A DNA stretch of 64,000 nucleotides, from assembly GCA_951406725.2 (NCBI GenBank), contig OX597827.1:60388001-60452000 (forward strand), written 5' to 3'. Below, piece after piece: positions 3,109-61,164 of this stretch. Made by a program: the position numbers and the translations under genes. Below the pieces are notes generated by a model. That model was not told where the DNA came from and made no database searches. It was given only the letters and a program-made list of their open reading frames with translations. Numbering within the stretch: the stretch's first letter is position 1; every line of letters begins with the position of its first letter. Source of the stretch: Octopus vulgaris. Taxonomy: Eukaryota.

Positions 3109-3445
3109 TTACTCTTTTACTTGTTTCAGTCATTATTCTTTGTAAGCCTAGTACTTATTCTATCGGCCTCTTTTTGCCGAACCGCTAAGTTACTGGGACG
3201 TAAACACACCAGCATCGATTGTCAAGCGATGTTGGGGGGGGGGGGGGGCAAACACAGACACACACACACATATATATATATATATACACATATGACAGGC
3301 TTCTTTCAATTTCCGTCTACCAAATCCATTCACAAGGCTTTGGTTGGCCCGAGGCTATAGTAGAAGACACTTGCCCAAGGTACCACGCAGTGGGACTGAA
3401 CCCGGAACCATTTGGTTTGTAAGCAAGCTACTTACCACACGGCCG
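3109..3445 (-). mobile_element. tRNA-derived CORE-type SINE (octopus OR-like family)
   Basis: Reverse complement of the gtgtggtaagtagcttgcttac...accttgggcaagtgtcttc consensus seen in many copies here. ACCTTGGGCAAGT resembles the MIR/CORE motif. Confidence 0.8.
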
Positions 3446-4262
3446 CTCAGCTTTTTTTATCATAGAAAAGTCAACACCCACCACTTGTCTACTGCTCCTT
3501 CTACAATAATGCATGACTCTCAGTGGTGGTATCATGAGTTTTTGTCTTTTGCTACCTGTTTGGTTGCATCTATGAAATATAAATAACACCAGAAATCAGA
3601 TGTTACTATAAAGCATGCTCACCAATATTTCATTAAAAAATTATTTCTTCTTTAGTATTTCACAGACATTTCTTTGAATCAGAATGAATTTAATTTGAAA
3701 TTTAAATTTGCAATTGTCAAATTAAAAACGAATGCTTAAGAACAAAATAGACATTTTCACTGTTTTTAGATATTGATCTCTTGGATTAAAAGAGGAAAGA
3801 CGTAACCATTTCATGTATATTAACTGCTTCGTATTTTATTGATCCAGAAGAAATTATGGGCAAGGTTAACTCATCCTATGTAAAAAAAAAAATCACAGGA
3901 AAATTTTGATAAATGACTGATTTAATAGGTTTTATTTAAAACATTGAATAAAGTGTGATTTTTCTTTTTCAAGTATATGTGATGGCATTTTTATTTTCAT
4001 TATTTATGGTATTAAATGAAATATAACCTTTTGTTTTTCCTGTGGTTGTATTATACTGTTTACTAATTGACCTCCCAGCGAAATTCTAAACATGGAACTA
4101 AGGTGTGTGAACCAAAATTCTGTAATACATTTAGTTGTTGCTGTTATTGTGGCTAATTAGCTTACCGGTCAAAGGCATTCCAGTGAAGACCTTCCTGTTT
4201 TATTTTCAGGCATCGCTTATCTAAGAGTACTTTATTCCATGTGTTGTTTTGTTTTGTTTTTC

Positions 4263-4484
4263 TTAACCCTTTAGCATTTAAACTGGCCATATCCAGCCCA
4301 AATATTTTATTTGTTTTATGTTCAAACTAGCCAGATCTTACTTCTCACACGTAGCCTACAATGTCACTTTAAACATAATCACATCATTGGATTCTCAAGG
4401 TTACAAACAATGCAGGATAAATTCAAAATGATGTGAATAAATATGCATTATAGCTGATTGAATAATCTGAACAATAAAGGGTTA
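4263..4484. mobile_element. piggyBac-like MITE
   Basis: TTAA-CCCTTTA...TAAAGGG-TTAA termini. Confidence 0.7.
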
Positions 4485-4694
4485 AAATAACAGAGTGTGA
4501 TTTGAAGAAATTTGTCTGTTGTTTCTAGCAGATTGAGCAGCCTGTCTTGTTAGCCCATAATGCAATTTTCTTTGATGTGCTTTCCAGTCAGAACTATCTT
4601 AGAAATACATTATCCACTGTGTAGTTCTGTGTTTAAAAACAATAATGAATGATTTAAAAGGAATTTGGTTATTATTTTTAACAGGACAGATGAC

Positions 4695-4950: not shown

Positions 4951-6257
4951 GACCAAGTTATGAAAGCAACATAACGAAGAGAAATAATTAGCTTAGATGA
5001 GATGTTCTTTTAAATTTGTGCTAGGACACTGCTGGTGTCACCAATGCCCTCTTCTTAGTGAGGTGTCTACAGAAGAATTTCTTAGCAAAGAGAGCAAATA
5101 TCAGTCTTTCACACATTAATTTGTGTAGGTTGAACTATGCAAAACATTATAGAAAGAAACCTAACTGTTTCTTTCAATACATACATCTAAAGTGAAATTT
5201 TTTCAGGGGCCTTTAAAATACTTTTGTGGATCCCCAATTTACAATTTTGTTATGTAGACCCCCAAAAATCCTATACAGACCTTGGTTGAGAACCACTGCT
5301 TTTAAGGATCTCTAGAGTAATGTTACTCAACAGCTTGCATACCTTTTTTTTGGAGGTACGCTACATCTAACATTAACATGTCCCCTTCCCTTTTAGAAAG
5401 TAATTTGAGGGAAATTTTGGCTGCTAGTTCTAACAAGTCAATCTATCAAACAGAGTATCTTTTATTTGTTCATGCTGCAAACATTAGAAAATAGTATCCA
5501 CTTGGGTTATCCCTATATGGAGTTAATAATTACCCTACACCATAAACTCATTTCCTGACTGTATAAATTTTATATATTTCTGACCATGAACATCTTATAG
5601 AAATATAATCCTACATAAATTTATGTCCCAGAATGATATAACATAATGACATATTACTTAGTATGCTATCAAAAAGGATCCCCCAGTAAGTTTACCATTA
5701 CGAAAATAATGCTTTGGTTTTTATTGTCTTCATTGTTCTAAATAAAATTGATATATCAAACATTGTTAATAGTGATGCTAGCAGTGAAAGAACATAGCCT
5801 AGTAGTTAGGTTAGTATTGGGTTCACATCACATGGTGGTGAGTTCAATTCTTAGACTGGGCAGCATGTTGTGTCCTTGAGAGCTGTTGTGTCTAAGACTG
5901 GATCCCTTTCTTAACACCAGCCACTTTTCAGGTGTAGTAGGTGCCTTTTGGAGGTGGGGTTATTAACACTGGCAAAGTCACCATGTGACTTACATGATCA
6001 GAGAGCTACGGCATCAGAGAAAGAGAAATGATGGCAAGTTTGGATTAGGTTTTGAGAAATTAAAATACAATGGGAGCGACAGGTAAGGGTTTTATTTGCT
6101 GAGAGTGTTAATAGAGAAGCTAAGTGTTGAGGAAGAGAAATAAAAGGGAAAGAGTAGTAGCAGGGCTTAGTGAGAGTGAAAAGGATGGTGGGATAGGGTG
6201 AAATAGAAAATTCAGGGCTACTCTGTAATATATATGAATATATATAACAACATGCAG

Positions 6258-6335
6258 CTCAGTCTGGGATTCGAGCTCACAACCTCACGATCATAAGCTC
6301 GACGCTCTAACCACTGAGCCATGCATCTTCACTAT
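6258..6335 (-). mobile_element. tRNA-like SINE head
   Basis: Minus strand reads tggctcagtggttagagcg...gctcgaatccc (A and B boxes). No clean acceptor stem. Similar to the heads at 61165 and 61395. Confidence 0.55.
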
Positions 6336-20500: not shown

Positions 20501-23239
20501 CGGCGATGAAATATTTCTTTCAGCATTTCTTGTTAAAAAGCAGGAGGTATTTAAGCAAGAGTTAAATGTTTTTTTTTTATTTTAACAATCTGAAAGCAAA
20601 AGACATCTAACCATAATTCACATTCAATCGCTCATGAAAAGCAAGTGAAGACTGCAATATAAGGGCAGTACTTTTTTGTGTCTATTTGACTTTCATTTTT
20701 TACACTAATATTTTGGGGCAAGTAGTGAAACTCACTCCATCATATTTTAATTCCTCCATAAGTTTAAGGGCATTTCATCATTGATATCAGCTTATAATTT
20801 ATCTCGAGCCTCAACTTAAATCACACCCTAACATGTTAAAAAAAGACACATTGGACCATGAAGACAGAGATATTCAATGCCAGGAAACCTGACAGGATGG
20901 TTATGGAATGCCTTTGATTATCAGTCTGCTCAACAAAAGGTAACTAGGGCTCAAGAACAACTAAATGCATTACAGGGTTTAGATCCAGGCACCAGTTTCA
21001 ATTTTAATTTTGCTATTAATTCTCTCAGGGTCAATAAAATAAGTAATAGTTATTACACCAGAAATGGCTACATTTTTTTCCTTTTTCATCAACTGACCCC
21101 ACCAAAAAAAATCAATATTTAACCCTTTTATTACCCAACTGATGTTGCAATACATTGACCTTTATTTCAATTAAATTTGAAATTAACAAATTTAGTAAAA
21201 TAATTTGTCGTCATTAAGTTGGTGTTTAGGACACCAACCTTTTTGAAATTTTGACAGATTTTAATTCTGAACACTTTAAAACACAAAATGATGCATCATA
21301 AAAGGGTAGAATGAAGCAGGTTCTTCCTGTGTGAACTATTCAGTTATAACAGTACAGAACATGTAGACAAACACAGGAGACCATCATGTGGCTCATAAAA
21401 TTTCATGCTCCATACATTCACAATTATTTCAACAAAGGAGCTATTAGTCTGTGTCGCACAACCAATGAGAAACAGCAGCCAAATTGCTCTCAAATAACAC
21501 TCCTTTGAAATCACACTTTGGACAAATGTAGTCACTTGTGCACAAAAAGGCAGGTTGATAACAACAGCAATGCATTTGTATGATCAGAATTAACTCGAGA
21601 CTAAGCATTTCAAACTTGACCAAACGAATATAGCCATCAGTTGTATAGTCAATGGCTCATACTCAACCATCCTTCCCCTAAGAAACATTTTTAAGTATGC
21701 TTTAGGTGGATAAGATATTGGATATCCTTCTCTTTGATTGTGCCTATGATCATAACACTTTATTCTGCATTTCTTCAGTCTCCTTAGCTGTTGAGAATAA
21801 GTACTCATTAATCTAAGTATGTTCAACTTCAAACCAGAAGCCATATTCGGTCTAGATTTTGGTTCTGATTATAGACTTCATAAGATGGCCAATTTGTATC
21901 ATAAACTATTTCATAAGGCAATGGTTAAGTCTCTATACAATTACTCAACCTGCTAGAAATAGCAGCCAAATTCCAGCTTAAATCATACCCAACTGTTTTT
22001 ATGTATAGAAATTATATATATATATATAATTTTAACATCCACTTTTCCATGCTTGCATAGGTTAGAAGGAATTTGGCAAGGCAGATTTTCTATGGTCGGA
22101 TACCCTTCCTGTCACCAATTCTCACCTCTTTCCAAACAAGGTAATATTTGCCTATCACCAGAGGTGTTTCCATAGCAGGTTGGAAATGAAGGACACACTC
22201 AGTATGATGATGACACTCATTTACAACTATCAATGTGGTGCCTAGACTAGGGAACATACACATGACAAGTTTCCTTCAGTTTCCAGCTACCACATCTACA
22301 CCCAAGGCTTTGATCAGTCCACAGTTATAATAGAAGACACTTGCCCAAGGTGACACACAGTGGGACTGTATACAAAACCACCTGATTGGAAAGCACACAG
22401 CCAACCCTACACTTATTTACACAATATAAATATAGCGTGTATGTGATGGTGGGGAGGAATGTATATATCATGTGTAAGTGCATTGCTAAATGATTTACTG
22501 GGTTGATTTATATAGTGGTCTCCTGCATAAATATGCAGTTTGAAATATTTAAATACGAGGTGAAAAGATGCTGTGACATTCATGCCTTTTTAAGGCCATT
22601 TTCCAGTTTAAATGAATGAAGTGGTTCCAGAAAGGAACAGAAACCATATTGTGAATTCTACAATAACTCACTGTAACACTTGCCGCTACACTCATGTAAT
22701 GATAGAAATTCCTTAATATTTGACTCCCTGATTATTCATGTCCATCCTTGGGTTTTTTCTATCATAACTTCAACATTATCTGCCAGTCACCAAATAGCCA
22801 TACTACTCAAAATTCAAAAAAGTCTCAGAAGTTTCTTTCAGTCTTGTTATATTCATAAATTCAATAATGGCATTTCAATATTCCATCTTGTGTGCAAAAA
22901 AAAAAAAATCTTTGTGATTAGGAATTGCTGTGTCATTCTTGAATGTTTTGCCTTATGTTTCCTTCTTTAGAACTTCAAAGTGACCATCTATTAGTAGAAC
23001 AATTTAATTGGGTGACCTCATCAAGCAATGGACAGGAGAAAAAAAGAAATATCTTACTCAGACAGAAAAGTTTATCCCTTATGTATTTGTGTCCAAATCA
23101 ATCAATTTATATCCAATATATGTCCTCACACACAAAATTAAAAGTTTAAATTCTTTTGATTGCATGTATTTTTGTATGCCAAGAAAAGTTCTTTACTTCA
23201 TCAAATCCTCTGCTTGTAAACCTCATGACAATACGTTCC

Positions 23240-24730
23240 TCAGCCAGTGTGTATTGCTAAATGCTTTACTATATCTGTATATTGAGAAAAGATTTCGCCA
23301 CAAAGTTGACAGGGATAAGGACCATCTGCAGTATGTGTTCTTGTGTGGTCAGATAAAAGGCGTTTTGTTGTGAATGCCTCACCACAAATCTTACATTGAT
23401 AAGGTTTCCCACCATTGTGCATTCGCAAATGTTTTACAAGAATGCTATTTTGGGAAAACGTTTTCTTACAAAACTCACAAACATAGGGCTTTTCTCCAGT
23501 ATGAATTCGTCTGTGTCTTACGAGAACACAGTTTAAAGTAAATGTTTTCTTACAAAACTCACAGGCATATGGCTTTTCCCCTGTATGTATTCGTTTATGC
23601 CTTCCCAGTTCGTTAATTTGAGAGAATCTTTTTTCACAAGTATCACATTTAAATGGTCTCTCTCCTGTGTGTACACGTATATGTCTTTCCAGATCACAAT
23701 TCTGTGAGAACGATTTTCCACAAGTCTCACAGCGATGAGGTTTTATACCCGAGTGGGTCAATTTGTGAATTTTTAAATGGCTGTTCCGAGAAAAGAATTT
23801 CCCACATACATCACAAGGGTAAGGTTTCTCCCCAGAATGTATTCGCTTGTGTCGGTCTCGATCGCTTTTACGAGTGAAGGAATTTCCACAAACATCACAC
23901 TGGAAAATCTTTGCTCTGAAATGTGTTTGTATGTGTCGAGTTAACTTCTTATTAGCGGGAAAAGATTTCCCGCAAATATCACAGGCGTATTGAGGTATAA
24001 GTGAAGATAATGTCGAAACAGGTCCAGAAGCATCCTTGTTACCATCTTTATCTGCCTTGCTTATCTCCCCATGTTTAATGAACGGAGGTAAAAATGAAGA
24101 CAATGATGAAACGGGTCCAGAAGTATCCTTGTCACCATCTTTCTCTGGCTTATTTGTCTCTCCATGTTTAATGTACTGAGGTAAAAGTGAAGACAGTGTT
24201 GAAACAGATTCAGAAGTATCTTTGTTATCATCTTTTTCTCCTTTGTTTAGCTCTCCATGTTTAATATATTGAGGTAAAAGTGAAGTCAATGTTGAAACAG
24301 AATCAGAAATATCCTTCATACTACCTTTCTCTGTTTTATTTCTCTCTCCATGTTTACTGAATTGAGGTAAAAGTGAAGGCGTTGTTGAAACAGATTCACA
24401 AGAATTATTGTTATTATTACCTTTTTCTATTTTGTGCATTCCTCCATGTTTACTGTATTGAGGTAAAAGAGAAGTCAATGTTGAAACAGATTCAGAAATA
24501 TCCTTCATACTACCTTTCTCTGTTTTACTTATCTCTCCACGTTTAATGTATTGAGGTAAAAGTGTAGAGAATGTTGAAACAGGTTCACAAGAATTTTTGT
24601 TGTTACTACCTTTCTGTGTTTTGTGCATCTCTCCATGTTTAATAAACATGTCTTTTGAAGGGGATGTATCCCCACAAACTTCACAAACATAGGAAACCTC
24701 TTTACCCTGTGACTCTTTCTGTTCAGACAT
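23240..24730 (-). CDS. C2H2 zinc-finger protein (1 N-terminal finger plus 9 tandem fingers); paralog B
   Basis: The first in-frame ATG is at 24730 (MSEQKE); the ORF-track start at 24811 is a GTG. Highly similar to 19-1512. Confidence 0.93.
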   Translation of the reverse strand: MSEQKESQGKEVSYVCEVCGDTSPSKDMFIKHGEMHKTQKGSNNKNSCEPVSTFSTLLPQYIKRGEISKTEKGSMKDISESVSTLTSLLPQYSKHGGMHKIEKGNNNNNSCESVSTTPSLLPQFSKHGERNKTEKGSMKDISDSVSTLTSLLPQYIKHGELNKGEKDDNKDTSESVSTLSSLLPQYIKHGETNKPEKDGDKDTSGPVSSLSSFLPPFIKHGEISKADKDGNKDASGPVSTLSSLIPQYACDICGKSFPANKKLTRHIQTHFRAKIFQCDVCGNSFTRKSDRDRHKRIHSGEKPYPCDVCGKFFSRNSHLKIHKLTHSGIKPHRCETCGKSFSQNCDLERHIRVHTGERPFKCDTCEKRFSQINELGRHKRIHTGEKPYACEFCKKTFTLNCVLVRHRRIHTGEKPYVCEFCKKTFSQNSILVKHLRMHNGGKPYQCKICGEAFTTKRLLSDHTRTHTADGPYPCQLCGEIFSQYTDIVKHLAIHTG

Positions 24731-24989
24731 TTTGTCAGTGATATTAACCTTTATTGTCGGCACAATACTTGACAGAGAAGAATTGTCATTTTCAGTAAAG
24801 ATTGTAAACACAGAACTGCAAATATCAGTACATAATTTCTTCTGTCTGTCTACTTGTACATGTTTGTAGATAATTGATCATGGTCAGAAACAGTTGAATG
24901 AACCACACTTTGCATGAATCAACAACACTCTCCCACAATAATGTAGCTTCAGTTGAAATATTTCTTCACCTTCCTGGCAAAATGAATGC

Positions 24990-48041: not shown

Positions 48042-48462
48042 GGTACTACTAGCGAACAGTGGTCCCGGTGCGCGCATCCGCGCTAGCTAGTCGTAAGTAG
48101 TCGATCCTACGACTTTTTAACCCTAACCCTAATTGTTTAACCCTAACCCTAAGCTTAGTTTGTTTATAATAATAATTTATTTACTGAGTTTAAAATATTA
48201 TTTATTTTGTTCGAAAAATATTTAATTTGTTTAAAAAAATTATATACATAGTTTTAAAAAATAATTTATTTATTTAGTTTTAAAAAATATTTACTTCGCG
48301 TTTTATTTACTTTGTTCGAAAAATATTATTTAATTTTCTTTGATATGTATTCAGCCTTGAAATACAAACATACGCACAAGTCGTTGTAGGATCGACTACT
48401 TACGACTAGCTAGCGCGGATGCGCGAGTGCGCGCACCGGTACCACTGTTCGCTAGTAGTACC
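48042..48462. mobile_element. MITE with GGTACT termini, about 70-80-bp TIRs and telomere-like repeats (Merlin-like?)
   Basis: ggtactactagcgaacagtggt...accactgttcgctagtagtacc, flanked by taaagacac and taaagacat. Confidence 0.85.
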
Positions 48463-50069
48463 TAAAGACATATGGTTTATGTTTGGGGTTTCGTGAAGGG
48501 ATGTATGTGTACGTGTACTTGCACATAACAGAACAGAATAAGAGAACTAGGAATCCTTATAATATTGATAACAAAGAGTCCACTTCTAACTGGGAGAGTA
48601 GGACCCTCAAAATCGTAGATTTATGGCATCGAGCTCACTTAACATCCCTTTAACGTCCTCAATTGGTCAGAAACAATATATTTTTCAATAATTGATAATA
48701 ATTACAAAAAAATTCCTATGTTGATTGTTGAATCAATTCGATAAAAAGACACAGCTCTGAAACTATGATCAACGTTGTAAATTCAGTCAGATTTTATCTA
48801 GGGTTTATTAAAATTTTTAAAGTTAATATTTCGTACAAATATCGCCAATGTCTGTATGCAGTTTATTATATTCGTCACGTTCTTTTGTGTTAACTATTTA
48901 TGACAAGAAAAGAATGATTCCACTCATCGTCTATCGCTTCAAAGAATCGTTGGCAGATTTTCACTAATTGATGTACACGTAGTTGTGCAATATGCGCTCG
49001 TGGCCTCGAATATGTTTCTATTTGGTATGCATTAGAGTTATTTATGTGAAATAGCAGGCGTTTAAAATTGTCGACTTTTAAGTTGGTATAAAAAAAATAA
49101 TAAAAGACGTTTGCGATTAAAAGCATTTCTCGATACATTTACAAATAAACCAATAAATAAGAGTTAAATTTAGATTTCAAAATGGAAGCTGGAAACCAAG
49201 AAAGATTTTCATCCCACCTCTCTTTACCAAAATCAGATCTTGCCACACAAATTATATGCAGATTTATAAGCCATTTATGAAGAAAAACATCAACAATTTA
49301 AAATCAATCCAAAAACAATAACATTAACAAAAAAAAAAAAAAAGAACGGCCTTCAGATGGCCACACCACATACCGAGATATATGAGCACATTCTTAACAG
49401 AATGGAGGCTGAAGATTCCTGTCCTTCGATGTTAAGAAACTAGACTTTATCATTATGAACAACCTCATGCAGGTGCACTGTTTATCGATCGTGTGAATTA
49501 CTGGAAACACGAAGTGGTGTATAACAACAGAATTGGGTATTTTAAAGGACACATTAAACTGAAAAGCATTTATGGTTTAAACGTATGAATAAAATGATAC
49601 CTATTGATAATACAGAATCTTCGCGACTAAGCACCCACTAAAAGGCATGTAACTAAAAACATCTCCTTCTATAGGCTATAAGCCCCGTCTTGGGTCTTCG
49701 ACTAACGATTCCTCTCACAGGGTCGTAGCAGCTGGGAAATTAAAGTGAGTAGCTGACAGAACGGGTGCACTACTAAAGACTAGCATGATCCTATACGGCA
49801 TCTTCTATCGGAACAGAATTATAATAATAGATGAAGAAAGATGTTAAAAAGGAATAAAATTAAGATTTTCGTTACGTTCTCTTCGGCGTAGAGTGACTTC
49901 CCTTGTCCGCGATAGGCTTAACTAAACGATAATCTGCTGCCCCCTCTATACAAAATTTTATTCTTGGTCGGAACCTTGAATATTGTATTCACATTTTATG
50001 AAATATATATATATCTTTGCTACCCACAAGGGGCTAAACACAGAGGGGGCAAACAAGGACAGACAAACG

Positions 50070-51581
50070 GGTACTTGTCTATTGTCGTGGTCCCGGTTTC
50101 GCACACGCAAATTCGCGCGCGCGCGCGCCAGACGTAGGTACTCGATACTCGAGATCCTACGAGGTGACTTGCGCATGCGCAGTGCAGAATTCGCGCGTGC
50201 GCGTTAAACCCCCCCCCTAAAAAAAAAGGTGTTGGATTTCACTAAAAATATATGTGTGTGTGTGTGTGTGTATATATAACATTTTCAATTTTACACAAAA
50301 AAATTACATAGTCGCTTTCCTCGCGGATTTACAGAGAAATGAATTAATTACTATTTTACAGAATAAAATTAATGAATTAATTATATAAATTAAATAATTC
50401 TTGAAAATTAATTAATATTAATAATATTTTTTGAACAAAGTAAATAATTTATAAAACTTGGTTAATAATTTTTTTTACACAAACGCGAACGTATATAATT
50501 TGTGAAACTTTTTTTTTTTTACAGACGTATATAATTTGGTAAACTTAATGAATTAATTTCTTATCATCATCATCATCGTTTAACGTCCGTTCTCCATGCC
50601 AGCATGGGTTGGACGGTTCGACCGGGGATCTGGGAAGCCAGAAGGCTGCACCAGACTCCAGTCTTATCTGGCAATGTTTCTACAGCTGGATGCCCTTCCT
50701 AACGCCAACCACTCCGAGAGTGTAGTGGGTGCTTTTTACATGCCACCCGCACAGGTGCCAGGCGAGGCTGGCAACGGCCACGGTCGGATTGGTGCCAGTC
50801 GAGGCGGCTCTGGCATCGGCCACGATTCGGATAGTGCTTTTTACGTACCACCAGTCCAGGGGTCCTGGCATTTGCCGGGTGCCACACTTGCCCCAACATG
50901 TCTTCGCAAGCAAAGGGGTTGGCATGGGTGCCTGTCGTGGGATGAGGTTCGATATCAACTTCGCTTGCCTCAACAGGTCTTTGTGTATAAATGTATAAAT
51001 TTTTCGCACTAAATTCTTTCCGTAGAATTTATAAAAAAACGCGCAAAATTATTCCGTAGACTTTATCAAATTAAAAAACGCAAAATTAATATATTTTTTG
51101 AAATTGCAAATTATTTAGAATATAAAACAAATTAAGTTAAATTTTAAAAATAAATGTCATATACTTATACTCTGTAAGGTGCTGTGTTCACACTTCAATT
51201 TACTATTTTCTAGAAATGTTGCTTTTCTAATTGAAACAATTTTTCTCAATCTCCATTTAAAAGTCCATAATGCCTCTTGAGCCATATCAAAATGAACAAC
51301 TTTGAATTACCCGGTGGTGGTGGTGGTGGTGGTGGTGTGAGGTTCTAATTTTTTTCTGATCTCTCTTTGCCCCCTCTTTATCTCAGTTGTTCATTCAGCT
51401 AATATTTAGAAAAATTTTCGCGCCCAATTTTTGTTGTCGCGGGAAAAGATGAACGATTTAAAATAAATATATCTTAATTGTAGTGTGAGAAAGTATATAT
51501 ATTCTGATGACAAAATATATTATCTTTCAAAAACATCCCAAATTTATAGACTATATCGTGTAGGTTTAAGAAATATATATA

Positions 51582-51612
<31 letters not shown>

Positions 51613-52980
51613 ATATATACATATATAGTAGAGAATGAAACATCTTTCATCTGTCTCCCCACCACACCTCCATCTAGGGGGGGCAAAGAGAGATCAGAAA
51701 AAAAAATTAGAACCTCACACCACCACCACCACCACCGGGTAATTCAAAGTTGTTCATTTTGATATGGCTCAAGAGGCATTATGGACTTTTAAATGGAGAT
51801 TGAGAAAAATTGTTTCAATTAGAAAAGCAACATTTCTAGAAAATAGTAAATTGAAGTGTGAACACAGCACCTTACAGAGTATAAGTATATGACATTTATT
51901 TTTAAAATTTAACTTAATTTGTTTTATATTCTAAATAATTTGCAATTTCAAAAAATATATTAATTTTGCGTTTTTTAATTTGATAAAGTCTACGGAATAA
52001 TTTTGCGCGTTTTTTTATAAATTCTACGGAAAGAATTTAGTGCGAAAAATTTATACATTTATACACAAAGACCTGTTGAGGCAAGCGAAGTTGATATCGA
52101 ACCTCATCCCACGACAGGCACCCATGCCAACCCCTTTGCTTGCGAAGACATGTTGGGGCAAGTGTGGCACCCGGCAAATGCCAGGACCCCTGGACTGGTG
52201 GTACGTAAAAAGCACTATCCGAATCGTGGCCGATGCCAGAGCCGCCTCGACTGGCACCAATCCGACCGTGGCCGTTGCCAGCCTCGCCTGGCACCTGTGC
52301 GGGTGGCATGTAAAAAGCACCCACTACACTCTCGGAGTGGTTGGCGTTAGGAAGGGCATCCAGCTGTAGAAACATTGCCAGATAAGACTGGAGTCTGGTG
52401 CAGCCTTCTGGCTTCCCAGATCCCCGGTCGAACCGTCCAACCCATGCTGGCATGGAGAACGGACGTTAAACGATGATGATGATGATAAGAAATTAATTCA
52501 TTAAGTTTACCAAATTATATACGTCTGTAAAAAAAAAAAAGTTTCACAAATTATATACGTTCGCGTTTGTGTAAAAAAAATTATTAACCAAGTTTTATAA
52601 ATTATTTACTTTGTTCAAAAAATATTATTAATATTAATTAATTTTCAAGAATTATTTAATTTATATAATTAATTCATTAATTTTATTCTGTAAAATAGTA
52701 ATTAATTCATTTCTCTGTAAATCCGCGAGGAAAGCGACTATGTAATTTTTTTGTGTAAAATTGAAAATGTTATATATACACACACACACACACACATATA
52801 TTTTTAGTGAAATCCAACACCTTTTTTTTTTAGGGGGGGTTTAACGCGCACGCGCGAATTCTGCACTGCGCATGCGCAAGTCACCTCGTAGGATCTCGAG
52901 TATCGAGTACCTACGTCTGACGCGCGCGCGCGCGCGAATTCGCGTGTGCAAAACCGGGACCACGACAATTGACAAGTACC
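50070..52980. mobile_element. 2.9-kb foldback DNA transposon with 1.3-kb arms, inserted in a SINE
   Basis: Arms 50070-51374 and 51679-52980. TSD gacaaacg at 50062-50069 and 52981-52988. The flanks rejoin into a family-2 SINE. Confidence 0.92.
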
Positions 52981-53443
52981 GACAAACGAATTAAGTCGAT
53001 TACATTGACACCAGTGCATAACTGGTACTTAATTTATCGACCCCGAAAGGATGAAAGGCAAAGTCGACCTCGGCGGAATTTGACATTTTATGAAATATAT
53101 TCGAGTCTTTTTTTTTTTTATCAAAGAAAGATATATGTTTTTATTTAATACGTCGCGTAAAATAAAATATAAATCCGAAAGAAGAACGTTGTAGATTGCT
53201 TGGAGCATTGGGATACAGAAGTAAAATAAATAATCTTTTCTACTCTAGGCACAAGGCCCGAAATTTTGGGGAGGTGGGGGGCAGTCGATCAGATCGACGC
53301 CAGTACGCAACTGGTACTTAATTTATCGACCACCGAAAGAATGAAAAGCAAAGTCGACCTCGGCAGAATTTAAACTCAGAACGTAAAGATTGACGAAGAG
53401 ATAAAATAAATAATGGAGAGCCTCTAACAATGCGAAAGGTAAA

Positions 53444-53627: not shown

Positions 53628-53931
53628 TGTCCCTTTTGATTTAACATAAATCCGTTTCAATTCAGTTAATATTTAACAAAACAATTGTTAATAAATGAAA
53701 ATCACAAAAAATTCCAATGAATCCGGGACCTTTTCCCAAACCAAAATAAGGGATTTGCAGCATATTAGGAGGTCGGGGTACTTGATTCCATGCAAAAAAT
53801 CCGAGTTTTTTTTTTTTTTTTTAGTAAAAATTGTACAGGTTTACTCTGAAAAATTACTGTTTTATGTTCTATATTGTAATTTACTACAATAGTCCCTTGC
53901 AAAGGTGTAGACAACCAATGGAGAAAGTACC

Positions 53932-58977: not shown

Positions 58978-59793
58978 TCACAGTGATGTAGCTTCATGTT
59001 CTCCAGCGTGACTGCGTTTATGATTTATAAGAGAAGAATTACTGGAGAAAAATTTCCTGCATATTTCACACTGATATGGCCTTTTTCCAGTGTGTAGATT
59101 TTTATGTGATTTTAAAGTAGTATTTTTACAGAAAGACTTCCCGCATATTTCACACTGATATGGGGTTACTCCCGTGTGCATTGCTTTATGTCCGTTTAAA
59201 GTACTCTTGTAACTAAAAGAGACCCCGCATATTTCACACTGAAACGGTTTCTCTCCCGTGTGAATTCGTTTATGTACTTTTAAAGTACTCTTATCACTAA
59301 AAGAGTTACCACATATTTCACAACGATATGGCTTTTCACCCGTGTGAATTCGTTCGTGTCCTTTTAAAGTACTGTTTTGACTGAAAGCGGTTCCGCATAT
59401 TTCACAATGGAAAGGTTTTTCTCCCGTATGGACTCTTATGTGTGATTTTAAACTACTATTCTCAATGAATGCTTTCCCACACGTCTCGCAGTGAAAGGGT
59501 TTTTCTCCCGTGTGTGTCCTCACGTGAATTTTTACATGGCTACTACGGGCAAAATTTTTCCCACATATTTCGCACTGAAATGGTTTTTCCCCCGTATGTA
59601 TCCTCACATGTCTTTCCAAATGGCTATTACGGAGAAAAGATGTCCCGCATATTTCACAATGATATGGCTTTACGCCAGAGTGTATTCGTTTGTGCCTATT
59701 TAAATACCCAACAACGAAAAATGATTTCCCACAAATATCACAATGATAGGACCTTTCTTCAGCATGCCTTCTTCTGTGCGTTTCTAGAGCCAT
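58978..59793 (-). CDS. C2H2 zinc-finger protein (9 tandem fingers, no effector domain seen)
   Basis: Nine intact fingers with TGEKP-type linkers. The first ATG is at 59793; the track start at 59826 is a GTG. The true start is uncertain. Confidence 0.8.
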   Translation of the reverse strand: MALETHRRRHAEERSYHCDICGKSFFVVGYLNRHKRIHSGVKPYHCEICGTSFLRNSHLERHVRIHTGEKPFQCEICGKNFARSSHVKIHVRTHTGEKPFHCETCGKAFIENSSLKSHIRVHTGEKPFHCEICGTAFSQNSTLKGHERIHTGEKPYRCEICGNSFSDKSTLKVHKRIHTGEKPFQCEICGVSFSYKSTLNGHKAMHTGVTPYQCEICGKSFCKNTTLKSHKNLHTGKRPYQCEICRKFFSSNSSLINHKRSHAGEHEATSL

Positions 59794-61164
59794 GTCATTT
59801 ACAAATGATTTCCAACTTTTTTTCACAAAATCGTCTTTCTACAATGAGTTTTCTCTTGTGCATTTTTAAAAATCAAACCTTGACAAATACTTCACAATGA
59901 CTGGATTTACCACTGCAACATCTACACATATGTGGACAACAAGACTAAGTGAAAATAATTTTCTATAAATTCCACGCCTCCTCTTTGATTCGATTCTGGA
60001 AAGTTATCTGGTATTACCAGAACACCAATATCTTTCTGCCATGTGTAGCGCACTTCCTAATGAGAAAAGGGAGAATGAACGTTATCAATATCTGTAACCG
60101 CAGACCTCATGTGTATTTGTTTGATAATTACACGAGAAATGATACTTGACATATTCCACAATAACAATGCTTATTTATTTACTCTCCACGAATGTCACAG
60201 AGAAATGTGTTACTTCACACTGTATTGTTACGTATCTTTCAAAATGGGTACACTAAAAGCTATTCTAACGAGTACCTTTTAGTGAGTATTTTTTAATGAA
60301 TATTGTAGATAAGAACATTCCAAGAGACAAACAGTTATCTCAGGATTATCATCATGATAGACGTCTTAATACATATTGGTTCTCCACAGTTGTTTCAGTA
60401 TGATAATTTGCGAGTTTTCATAATAGGGTTCAGTTTCAATTGCTTGGGATATTACAAAACGTAAGACAAACGAACCACTTTTTTTACATTGTATAAAGGA
60501 ATTCAATATACAACCACACAAATTTGGAGCTTACACTTAATAATTATATATAGATATATAAAATTAAATATGATTCGCAATTAGTGATAATTAAATCAAT
60601 TACGAACTAAATTAGATTTATATTTCTCCAAGGACGTAAATGGAATATGAAACAGAATTTGAAAATAACTATCGAGACTTTCTTTTTTAATGTGTTAAGA
60701 TCCGATCAAACATATCGATAATTGCTGTATAAAATGGTTATTGAACAGTTACAGCTGATATAGATAAGGGAGATCACTGTATTGTGTATGTTCTGTAAAG
60801 TATTCTGTGTATTGAAATAACGGCATATATTTTATATAACTGGGAGTGTTGTTTCTACTGGTACACCTGTGTCGAATGCTGTTGTTATTATTATTATATG
60901 AATATAAACATAACATACTTAAATAGATCTGCTATGGAAATATGTTATAGAATTTGGTATTTACCGAATAAGATTATGGATGTTGATTATTCTCTCGTTC
61001 CCGTCGAACTGGATCACGTGATTCACTCACATTGGTAAATGTTTACCAAAAAAATTTCAGAAAGAGCATGTGTTCAGATATTGTGTACGTAAACAAAATA
61101 CTATGCGTAAATACTAGGTAATATGATAAATCTCGGGTTATATCTATATATTTGTATGATGCAT

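Follow-up and report, generated by a model that had tools for sequence, protein, structure and literature searches.

The element found at positions 50070 to 52980 of the window (the whole 64,000-nucleotide stretch of Octopus vulgaris DNA that was analysed) appears to be a non-autonomous derivative of the Merlin superfamily, an assignment supported by its homology to a Merlin transposase locus. Its two long inverted arms share a piece of a LINE retroelement together with mutations that arose later, and this sharing is likely to have come about through occasional copying of one arm from the other during recombinational repair.

Structure, insertion site and family

An earlier note on this DNA had described near-identical arms with a spacer of about 300 bp between them, an 8-bp target-site duplication and insertion into a SINE, and all of these features were confirmed. 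A total of 1,125 nucleotides of the 1,305-bp arms are 100% complementary, the spacer measures about 300 bp (306 by one cut used) and the element is flanked on both sides by the exact 8-bp target duplication GACAAACG. In the aligned stretch of the arms (to 51345), the differences consist of substitutions at 50080, 50100 and 50109 and a 2-nt indel near 50129, all of them within the outer 60 bp, as well as variable run lengths of homopolymers and (GGT)n. The mismatches noted earlier in the outermost 60 bp or so are real, and their cause lies in subfamily-diagnostic alleles of a mosaic left end and not in decay. The LINE piece is 419 bp long and its left and right copies are identical as claimed, although the bounds first given for it (to 50990 and from 52060) did not hold (Table 1).

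The host of the insertion is a SINE-type repeat for which 32 flank-to-flank matches, in the window and the fetched loci, cross the insertion junction; the overlap is exactly 8 bp in all of the 15 matches printed. Contigs from all four sequencing runs go from 50067-50070 straight into the sequence right of the element, and no contig of the four runs bridges either element-flank junction of the window copy, so that the insertion rests on the assembly and the target duplication. The contigs of the four runs stop at the host SINE, where presence or absence of the insertion in other individuals is unreadable. The depth summed over the family terminus, which is no measure of copy number, suggests that the family is present in all four runs.

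Table 1. Features of the element and of its insertion site (window coordinates).
Feature	Position	Strand	Remarks
Whole non-autonomous Merlin-derived foldback element	50070..52980	.	2,911 bp
Left arm	50070..51374	+	1,305 bp
Right arm	51676..52980	-	1,305 bp; subfamily-B terminus
Spacer	51375..51675	.	
Left target-site duplication	50062..50069	+	8 bp
Right target-site duplication	52981..52988	+	8 bp
5' flank, left part of host SINE-type repeat	50005..50069	.	other copies cross the junction uninterrupted
3' flank, right part of host SINE-type repeat	52981..53085	.	other copies cross the junction
Left terminus with subfamily-A alleles (50080, 50100) and subfamily-B body	50070..50130	+	
Segment homologous to the end downstream of the L058 Merlin transposase gene	50070..50456	-	
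AT-rich subterminal repeats	50457..50562	.	common to other elements of the same Merlin clan
LINE 3' piece with (GAT)n tail, left arm	50563..50981	-	
LINE 3' piece, right arm	52068..52486	+	identical to left copy
Deleted pieces of a second Merlin family, left arm	51009..51337	-	85-97% identical in blocks to L059/L061/L073

The terminal 27-mer of the element was found 173 times genome-wide as an exact match (85 + 88) compared to 0 and 0 for the reversed control, and the element is therefore not a chance structure. The family, in which 71 of the ends are of type A, comprises roughly a hundred elements and is young. Target duplications of 8 or 9 bp, scored with at most one mismatch, flank 69 of the 76 two-ended copies (42 of 9 bp and 27 of 8 bp). 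The first set of 70 sequences contributed 52 of 59 two-ended copies, its 11 one-ended loci being left out of the counts, and the second set of full copies contributed 17 of 17. The many duplications exclude an assembly inversion, which the earlier note had allowed for, as the origin of the structure.

Internal deletions, which an unstable palindrome would be expected to suffer, were found in fifteen of the two-ended copies. Some of them are reduced to 82-122 bp of bare ends, and such collapse products with just two ends left occur at L090, L092 and L093, the first of which sits within an older, LINE-free relative. Four copies with two ends (L091, L190, L194 and L200) have no target duplication and are candidates for ectopic-recombination breakpoints. 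At L206, two family members with differing duplications are separated by 58 bp, as expected from local hopping. The surroundings in the window contain C2H2 zinc-finger open reading frames (including 23240-24877 and 58978-59838) and the window is part of a zinc-finger cluster, in which positions 1-1712 and 23040-24748 form an inverted zinc-finger gene duplicate that is 95-96% identical and carries 93-bp coding repeats.

Merlin ancestry and the LINE cargo

A search for the IS1595/Merlin domain returned 150 scored matches, of which 30 loci were fetched. One of them, L058, starts with the same terminus as the foldback element and aligns with positions 1-387 of the arm, where identity is 96-98% within blocks and 84% over the whole alignment, gaps included. 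This locus has an open frame of 298 codons with a DDE_Tnp_IS1595 domain (PF12762, E 1.3e-19), and residues D136, D197 and E238 of its product occur in motifs that we take to be catalytic. The first part of the spacer matches the region upstream of the L058 transposase frame (96% over 78 bp) as well as L130 and L136. As both the ends and the spacer are homologous to this transposase locus, the element was classified as a Merlin derivative, in agreement with the affinity to Merlin/IS1016 that the earlier note had suggested alongside MULE-type foldbacks. The termini begin with 5'-GG. Of three elements in the same terminal clan that contain transposase fragments, two are flanked by a duplication of 8 or 9 bp. 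The coding content of the element is just a 14-codon transposase scrap (51193-51234), found among the pieces of the second Merlin family together with subterminal repeats and a 5' region.

The left arm and the spacer are collinear with a Merlin; the right arm repeats the downstream end. In the transposase loci closest to the element (L058/L132, L130 and L131), the downstream terminus alone is seen and there is no upstream one. The earlier note had proposed a search for an autonomous partner. L058 carries the same terminus, and no two-ended autonomous parent was found among the 40 scored of 68 candidates, nor among 30 further loci. Since the closest transposase loci have one terminus, the TIR (terminal inverted repeat) length of the parent and a fold-back origin are inferred, and it is plausible that a fold-back gave a one-ended Merlin its second end. 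In the relative L136, an inverted copy of the downstream region occurs at the same inner boundary.

Several other Merlin-related structures were observed. Twenty-seven of the 30 further loci (L148-L174) form a homogeneous family of derivatives of about 700 bp, in which parts of both Merlin families are mixed and for which no second terminus was seen within 1.5 kb. A 421-bp MITE of the same terminal clan lies at 48042-48462 of the window with a 9-bp duplication containing one mismatch. In L130, a Merlin transposase copy is folded back over 1,099 bp at 98.5% (3440-4535 and 5182-6275). This is an independent fold-back, which also mirrors the end of an inserted element that looks Helitron-like by its helicase motifs. 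Long inverted arms also surround transposase pieces of other, distant Merlin families in L143 (3024-6223) and L142 (4001-5967), which suggests that fold-back is common among the Merlins of this genome.

The LINE piece was found in all 120 arms of 60 full copies with at least 98.4% identity, in loci that were fetched by outer arm, terminus or spacer and not via the LINE. The search for copies with and without the insert that the earlier note had proposed thus recovered both kinds, as four relatives (L230, L231, L232 and L238, among 15 matches) contain the empty LINE site, and these are older; the LINE piece thus went into a relative in which this site was unoccupied. The filled site lacks a clear duplication, having lost a few bases and gained about seven. 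The last 232 bp of the piece match all 20 fetched loci at 85-89%, and an RVT_1 domain lies upstream in two of these loci (E 5e-32 and 1e-15). By this homology the cargo is the 3' end of a reverse-transcriptase LINE, with its 5' 190 bp derived from a sister subfamily. The more specific label RTE, taken from C-terminal motifs that we presume to be characteristic, is plausible, so that the earlier description as an RTE 3' fragment stands for the LINE and less firmly for the clade. The broader claim of a DNA transposon that carries retroelement cargo is borne out, with the LINE 3' piece present in both arms of a Merlin derivative.

A reading of the cargo as a SINE with a fixed 5' end was rejected because the copies continue into a reverse-transcriptase frame; the common start was the truncation point of the query. 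A search of the cargo against Rfam gave just microsatellite-driven matches below the gathering score. In the LINE family (L339-L357), a PHD/C1-like cysteine finger below the Pfam cut-off follows the reverse-transcriptase domain, and tandem 3' repeats of about 330 and 62 bp are present. Five loci (L288, L289 and L283-L285) contain the LINE piece in one arm; these could be later deletions and not precursors with the RTE piece in one arm.

Probable copying between the arms

The mirroring of mutations was counted in 59 copies over 1,073 clean columns, with homopolymer and microsatellite columns masked. L203 (a duplicate of L202) and L207 (in which the arm cut failed) were dropped beforehand, and a mirrored 6-bp deletion at arm position 99 was left uncounted since it recurs in a short repeat. 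A total of 94 singletons and 27 doubletons were found. Nineteen of the 27 doubletons occur in both arms of one copy, where the chance is about 0.9% each, and 17 of 21 do so without CpG sites. The distance within copies is smaller than that between copies both in subfamily A (15 copies; 0.46% versus 0.98%) and in subfamily B (42 copies; 0.15% versus 0.20%), with a permutation p of 0.0001 in each. The mirrored alleles form a nested ladder (267/992/1064, then 128, then 11/31, then 964 and then 694), in which L058 supplies the ancestral state at site 11 and for which one-arm intermediates exist at sites 964 and 694. Larger mirrored changes consist of a 37-bp deletion in L193 and a deletion of about 115 bp within the LINE in L278. 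Most new mutations, namely the 94 singletons, stay unmirrored.

Some of the copying may take place where an element already sits. Matching flanks (257/263 and 278/280, with the right flank at 98.5% over 4.6 kb) identify L202 and L203 as duplicates of a single insertion. Between the two, each arm differs at site 1030, a pattern that suggests conversion in place, although this is one site and it adjoins a T run. The second duplicated pair, L191/L192, shows no mirrored difference. Mirrored private changes compared to singletons number 13 versus 50 in the older subfamily and 5 versus 44 in the younger, and the higher mirrored share in the older one fits either conversion in place or unsampled source copies.

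These observations can be accommodated in the following sequence of events. An internally rearranged Merlin would have acquired pieces of a second Merlin family, and later the LINE piece in one of its arms. The element is prone to form a hairpin, and a break inside it or close by would have been repaired using the other arm as template, so that two downstream ends came to enclose what had been the upstream region. The resulting element would then have been moved in trans, by cut-and-paste, by a Merlin transposase like that of L058. Arm-to-arm conversion would have taken place at least five times in the ancestry of the youngest copies, and it probably also acts in place after insertion. The arm-to-arm copying that the earlier note had invoked for the LINE insert is supported by the mirrored mutations and the empty-site relatives, and is refined from one event to a recurrent process.

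Obligatory fold-back or hairpin replication, by which one arm is re-made from the other at every transposition, would account for the many young copies with zero substitutions between the arms and for the nearly constant mirroring of diagnostic alleles. We nevertheless regard it as very improbable, as single-arm deletions have been passed on unmirrored, one of 35 bp in L025 and L221 and another of 36-37 bp in L179, L188, L213 and L224, and the copying is therefore occasional and not part of each jump. Five doubletons on the same side of two different copies, as well as allele 694A, which is confined to a single arm in L021 and L034, point the same way. A 36-bp deletion common to a four-copy sublineage is in the right arm of three copies and the left arm of one, as a spacer flip would give. 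A single ancient fold-back followed by assembly or polishing artefacts that made the arms of each copy alike is very improbable. Near-identical arms some 300 bp apart do invite mis-mapping, the arm-specific variants are those of the assembly, and consensus polishing could contribute some of the mirroring. Polishing should, however, mix alleles and favour the majority one, whereas the subfamily alleles are consistently mirrored (13-16 copies each, with 0-2 exceptions), the 94 one-arm variants survive in the assembly, and the mirrored 37-bp and 115-bp deletions exceed the scale of polishing.

It is more improbable still that the element is a foldback of MULE/FB or P/Galileo type that resembles Merlin merely at its ends. 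Arms longer than 1 kb are typical of MULE/FB foldbacks, and GG ends with 8-9-bp duplications are compatible with MULEs. Such arms are likewise typical of P/Galileo-type foldbacks (PMC3573991, PMC4168063), but here the ends, the subterminal region and the spacer are all homologous to DNA around a Merlin transposase gene, and the sole linked transposase in the profile search for the IS1595/Merlin domain is that of Merlin. Occasional arm-to-arm copying within a Merlin derivative is thus the reading that we retain.

The window copy is itself a mosaic with subfamily-A alleles at its left end and subfamily-B alleles at its right. Its body is late B, as the derived B allele 964A is found in both arms. 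To judge from the allele pattern, an older subfamily-A copy most likely served to overwrite the outermost 21 to about 120 bp of the left side, a change that has not yet been mirrored on the right. It is unlikely that the mixed ends are instead a transitional state retained since subfamily B arose, or the product of a local assembly error. The left end is identical to that of L028, the A copy closest to B, and one-arm intermediates are known for other alleles, both of which would suit a retained state. Allele 964A, however, is carried neither by L028 nor by at least 10 B copies whose ends are entirely of the B type, which places the window body inside B, and A as the minority type is unlikely to be created by polishing. 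The private A at 50109 is missing from the contigs of three of the four runs, including one possible source run. L200 is likewise mixed A/B and has no duplication.

End types, known systems and implications

The LINE-bearing core occurs with five end types and is about 98-99% alike among them. One of these end types is unrelated in sequence; its two arms match, 8-bp duplications flank it in L278 and L279, and it is also found nested inside another end type, the use of an inner terminus being an alternative to switching in this case. In a tree of the inner core, used solely for this purpose, the end types intermingle, with low support on most branches and a long L081/L179 branch that is attributed to a shared deletion. 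We tentatively raise the possibility, which we hold to be somewhat short of even, that the LINE-tagged core is an end-switching parasite that has serially swapped its outer 250-400 bp for termini of different Merlin families. If this is true, a one-sided end replacement from another copy would become a matched pair through arm-to-arm conversion, the core could follow whichever transposase is active, and the window copy would be a half-finished end switch. No transposase for the GGTAAA end type was found in 14 fetched stretches; distant Merlin matches lie about 4 kb away in three of them, with no second terminus to link them. Elements with GGTAAA ends (L324-L327 and L333) have the spacer and inner boundary of the foldback family with different arms of 460-670 bp, and a fragment of GGTAAA-type subterminal repeat occurs near the element at 53733-53857 of the window.

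The element resembles Merlin/IS1016, as described in the cited part of PMC8101967, in its 5'-GG termini, 8- or 9-bp duplications, link to DDE_Tnp_IS1595 and internal tandem repeats. It differs from that description in that the end lying downstream of the transposase gene has given rise to its two ends, and in its 1,305-bp arms with retroelement cargo and no coding capacity. Merlin TIRs are given there as 24-462 bp, and as the arms fall outside this range the element is filed as a variant Merlin derivative and not as a typical member; TIR length is in any case considered unreliable for classification (PMC3573991).

Very long TIRs around a short spacer are shared with Galileo/Foldback-type elements. 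In the cited portions of the work on Galileo, a member of the P superfamily in Drosophila willistoni and D. mojavensis, conversion was proposed as the cause (PMC4168063, PMC3573991) of features also seen here, namely non-autonomous copies with TIRs extended past 1 kb, an element inserted in one TIR that ends up in both, and chimeric copies with the ends of two subfamilies. The phenomenon itself (insert transfer between TIRs, TIR extension and chimeric ends) is therefore already known from Galileo. The Galileo inserts reported there are DNA transposons and the chimeras have no target duplications, whereas here the cargo is a LINE and the mosaic copy has a perfect duplication; the octopus family also belongs to another superfamily, and its mirroring was quantified in 59 copies, in which the events form a nested ladder. 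As in the tandem-TIR MULEs, Pack-MULEs and Pack-TIRs, in the parts of the reports cited (PMC3310237, PMC8277862), acquired sequence joins extended TIRs, and those elements also have nested inner and outer termini and capture by template switching. The octopus family is unlike those MULEs, so far as described there, in that the inner terminus type also serves as the actual end of other copies, with 8-bp duplications in L278 and L279, and in that each arm holds a mirrored copy of the cargo.

Sex-chromosome palindromes undergo arm-to-arm gene conversion, and their inverted arms, likewise separated by a short spacer, show mirrored mutations. They are fixed, large and single-locus, whereas the present palindrome is mobile, 2.9 kb long and found at about a hundred sites. 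A literature search outside subscription journals and Repbase found no description of a foldback Merlin and no comparable count of repeated mirroring. Eighteen Merlin families, two of them recently active, were counted in an octopus in the accessible part of one report, the text of which gives no sequences (PMC13282606), and the foldback family may already sit unremarked in such a repeat library.

The family extends foldback behaviour to the Merlin superfamily and provides countable support for TIR conversion in the form of a nested series of mutations present in both arms, of intermediates with the change in a single arm, and of one duplicated insertion whose two copies differ in each arm. 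The identity between the TIRs underestimates insertion age, by about half in subfamily A. Finally, the roughly one hundred young near-palindromes of 2.9 kb offer a natural assay of how inverted repeats convert and collapse, and are possible points of rearrangement in the genome.
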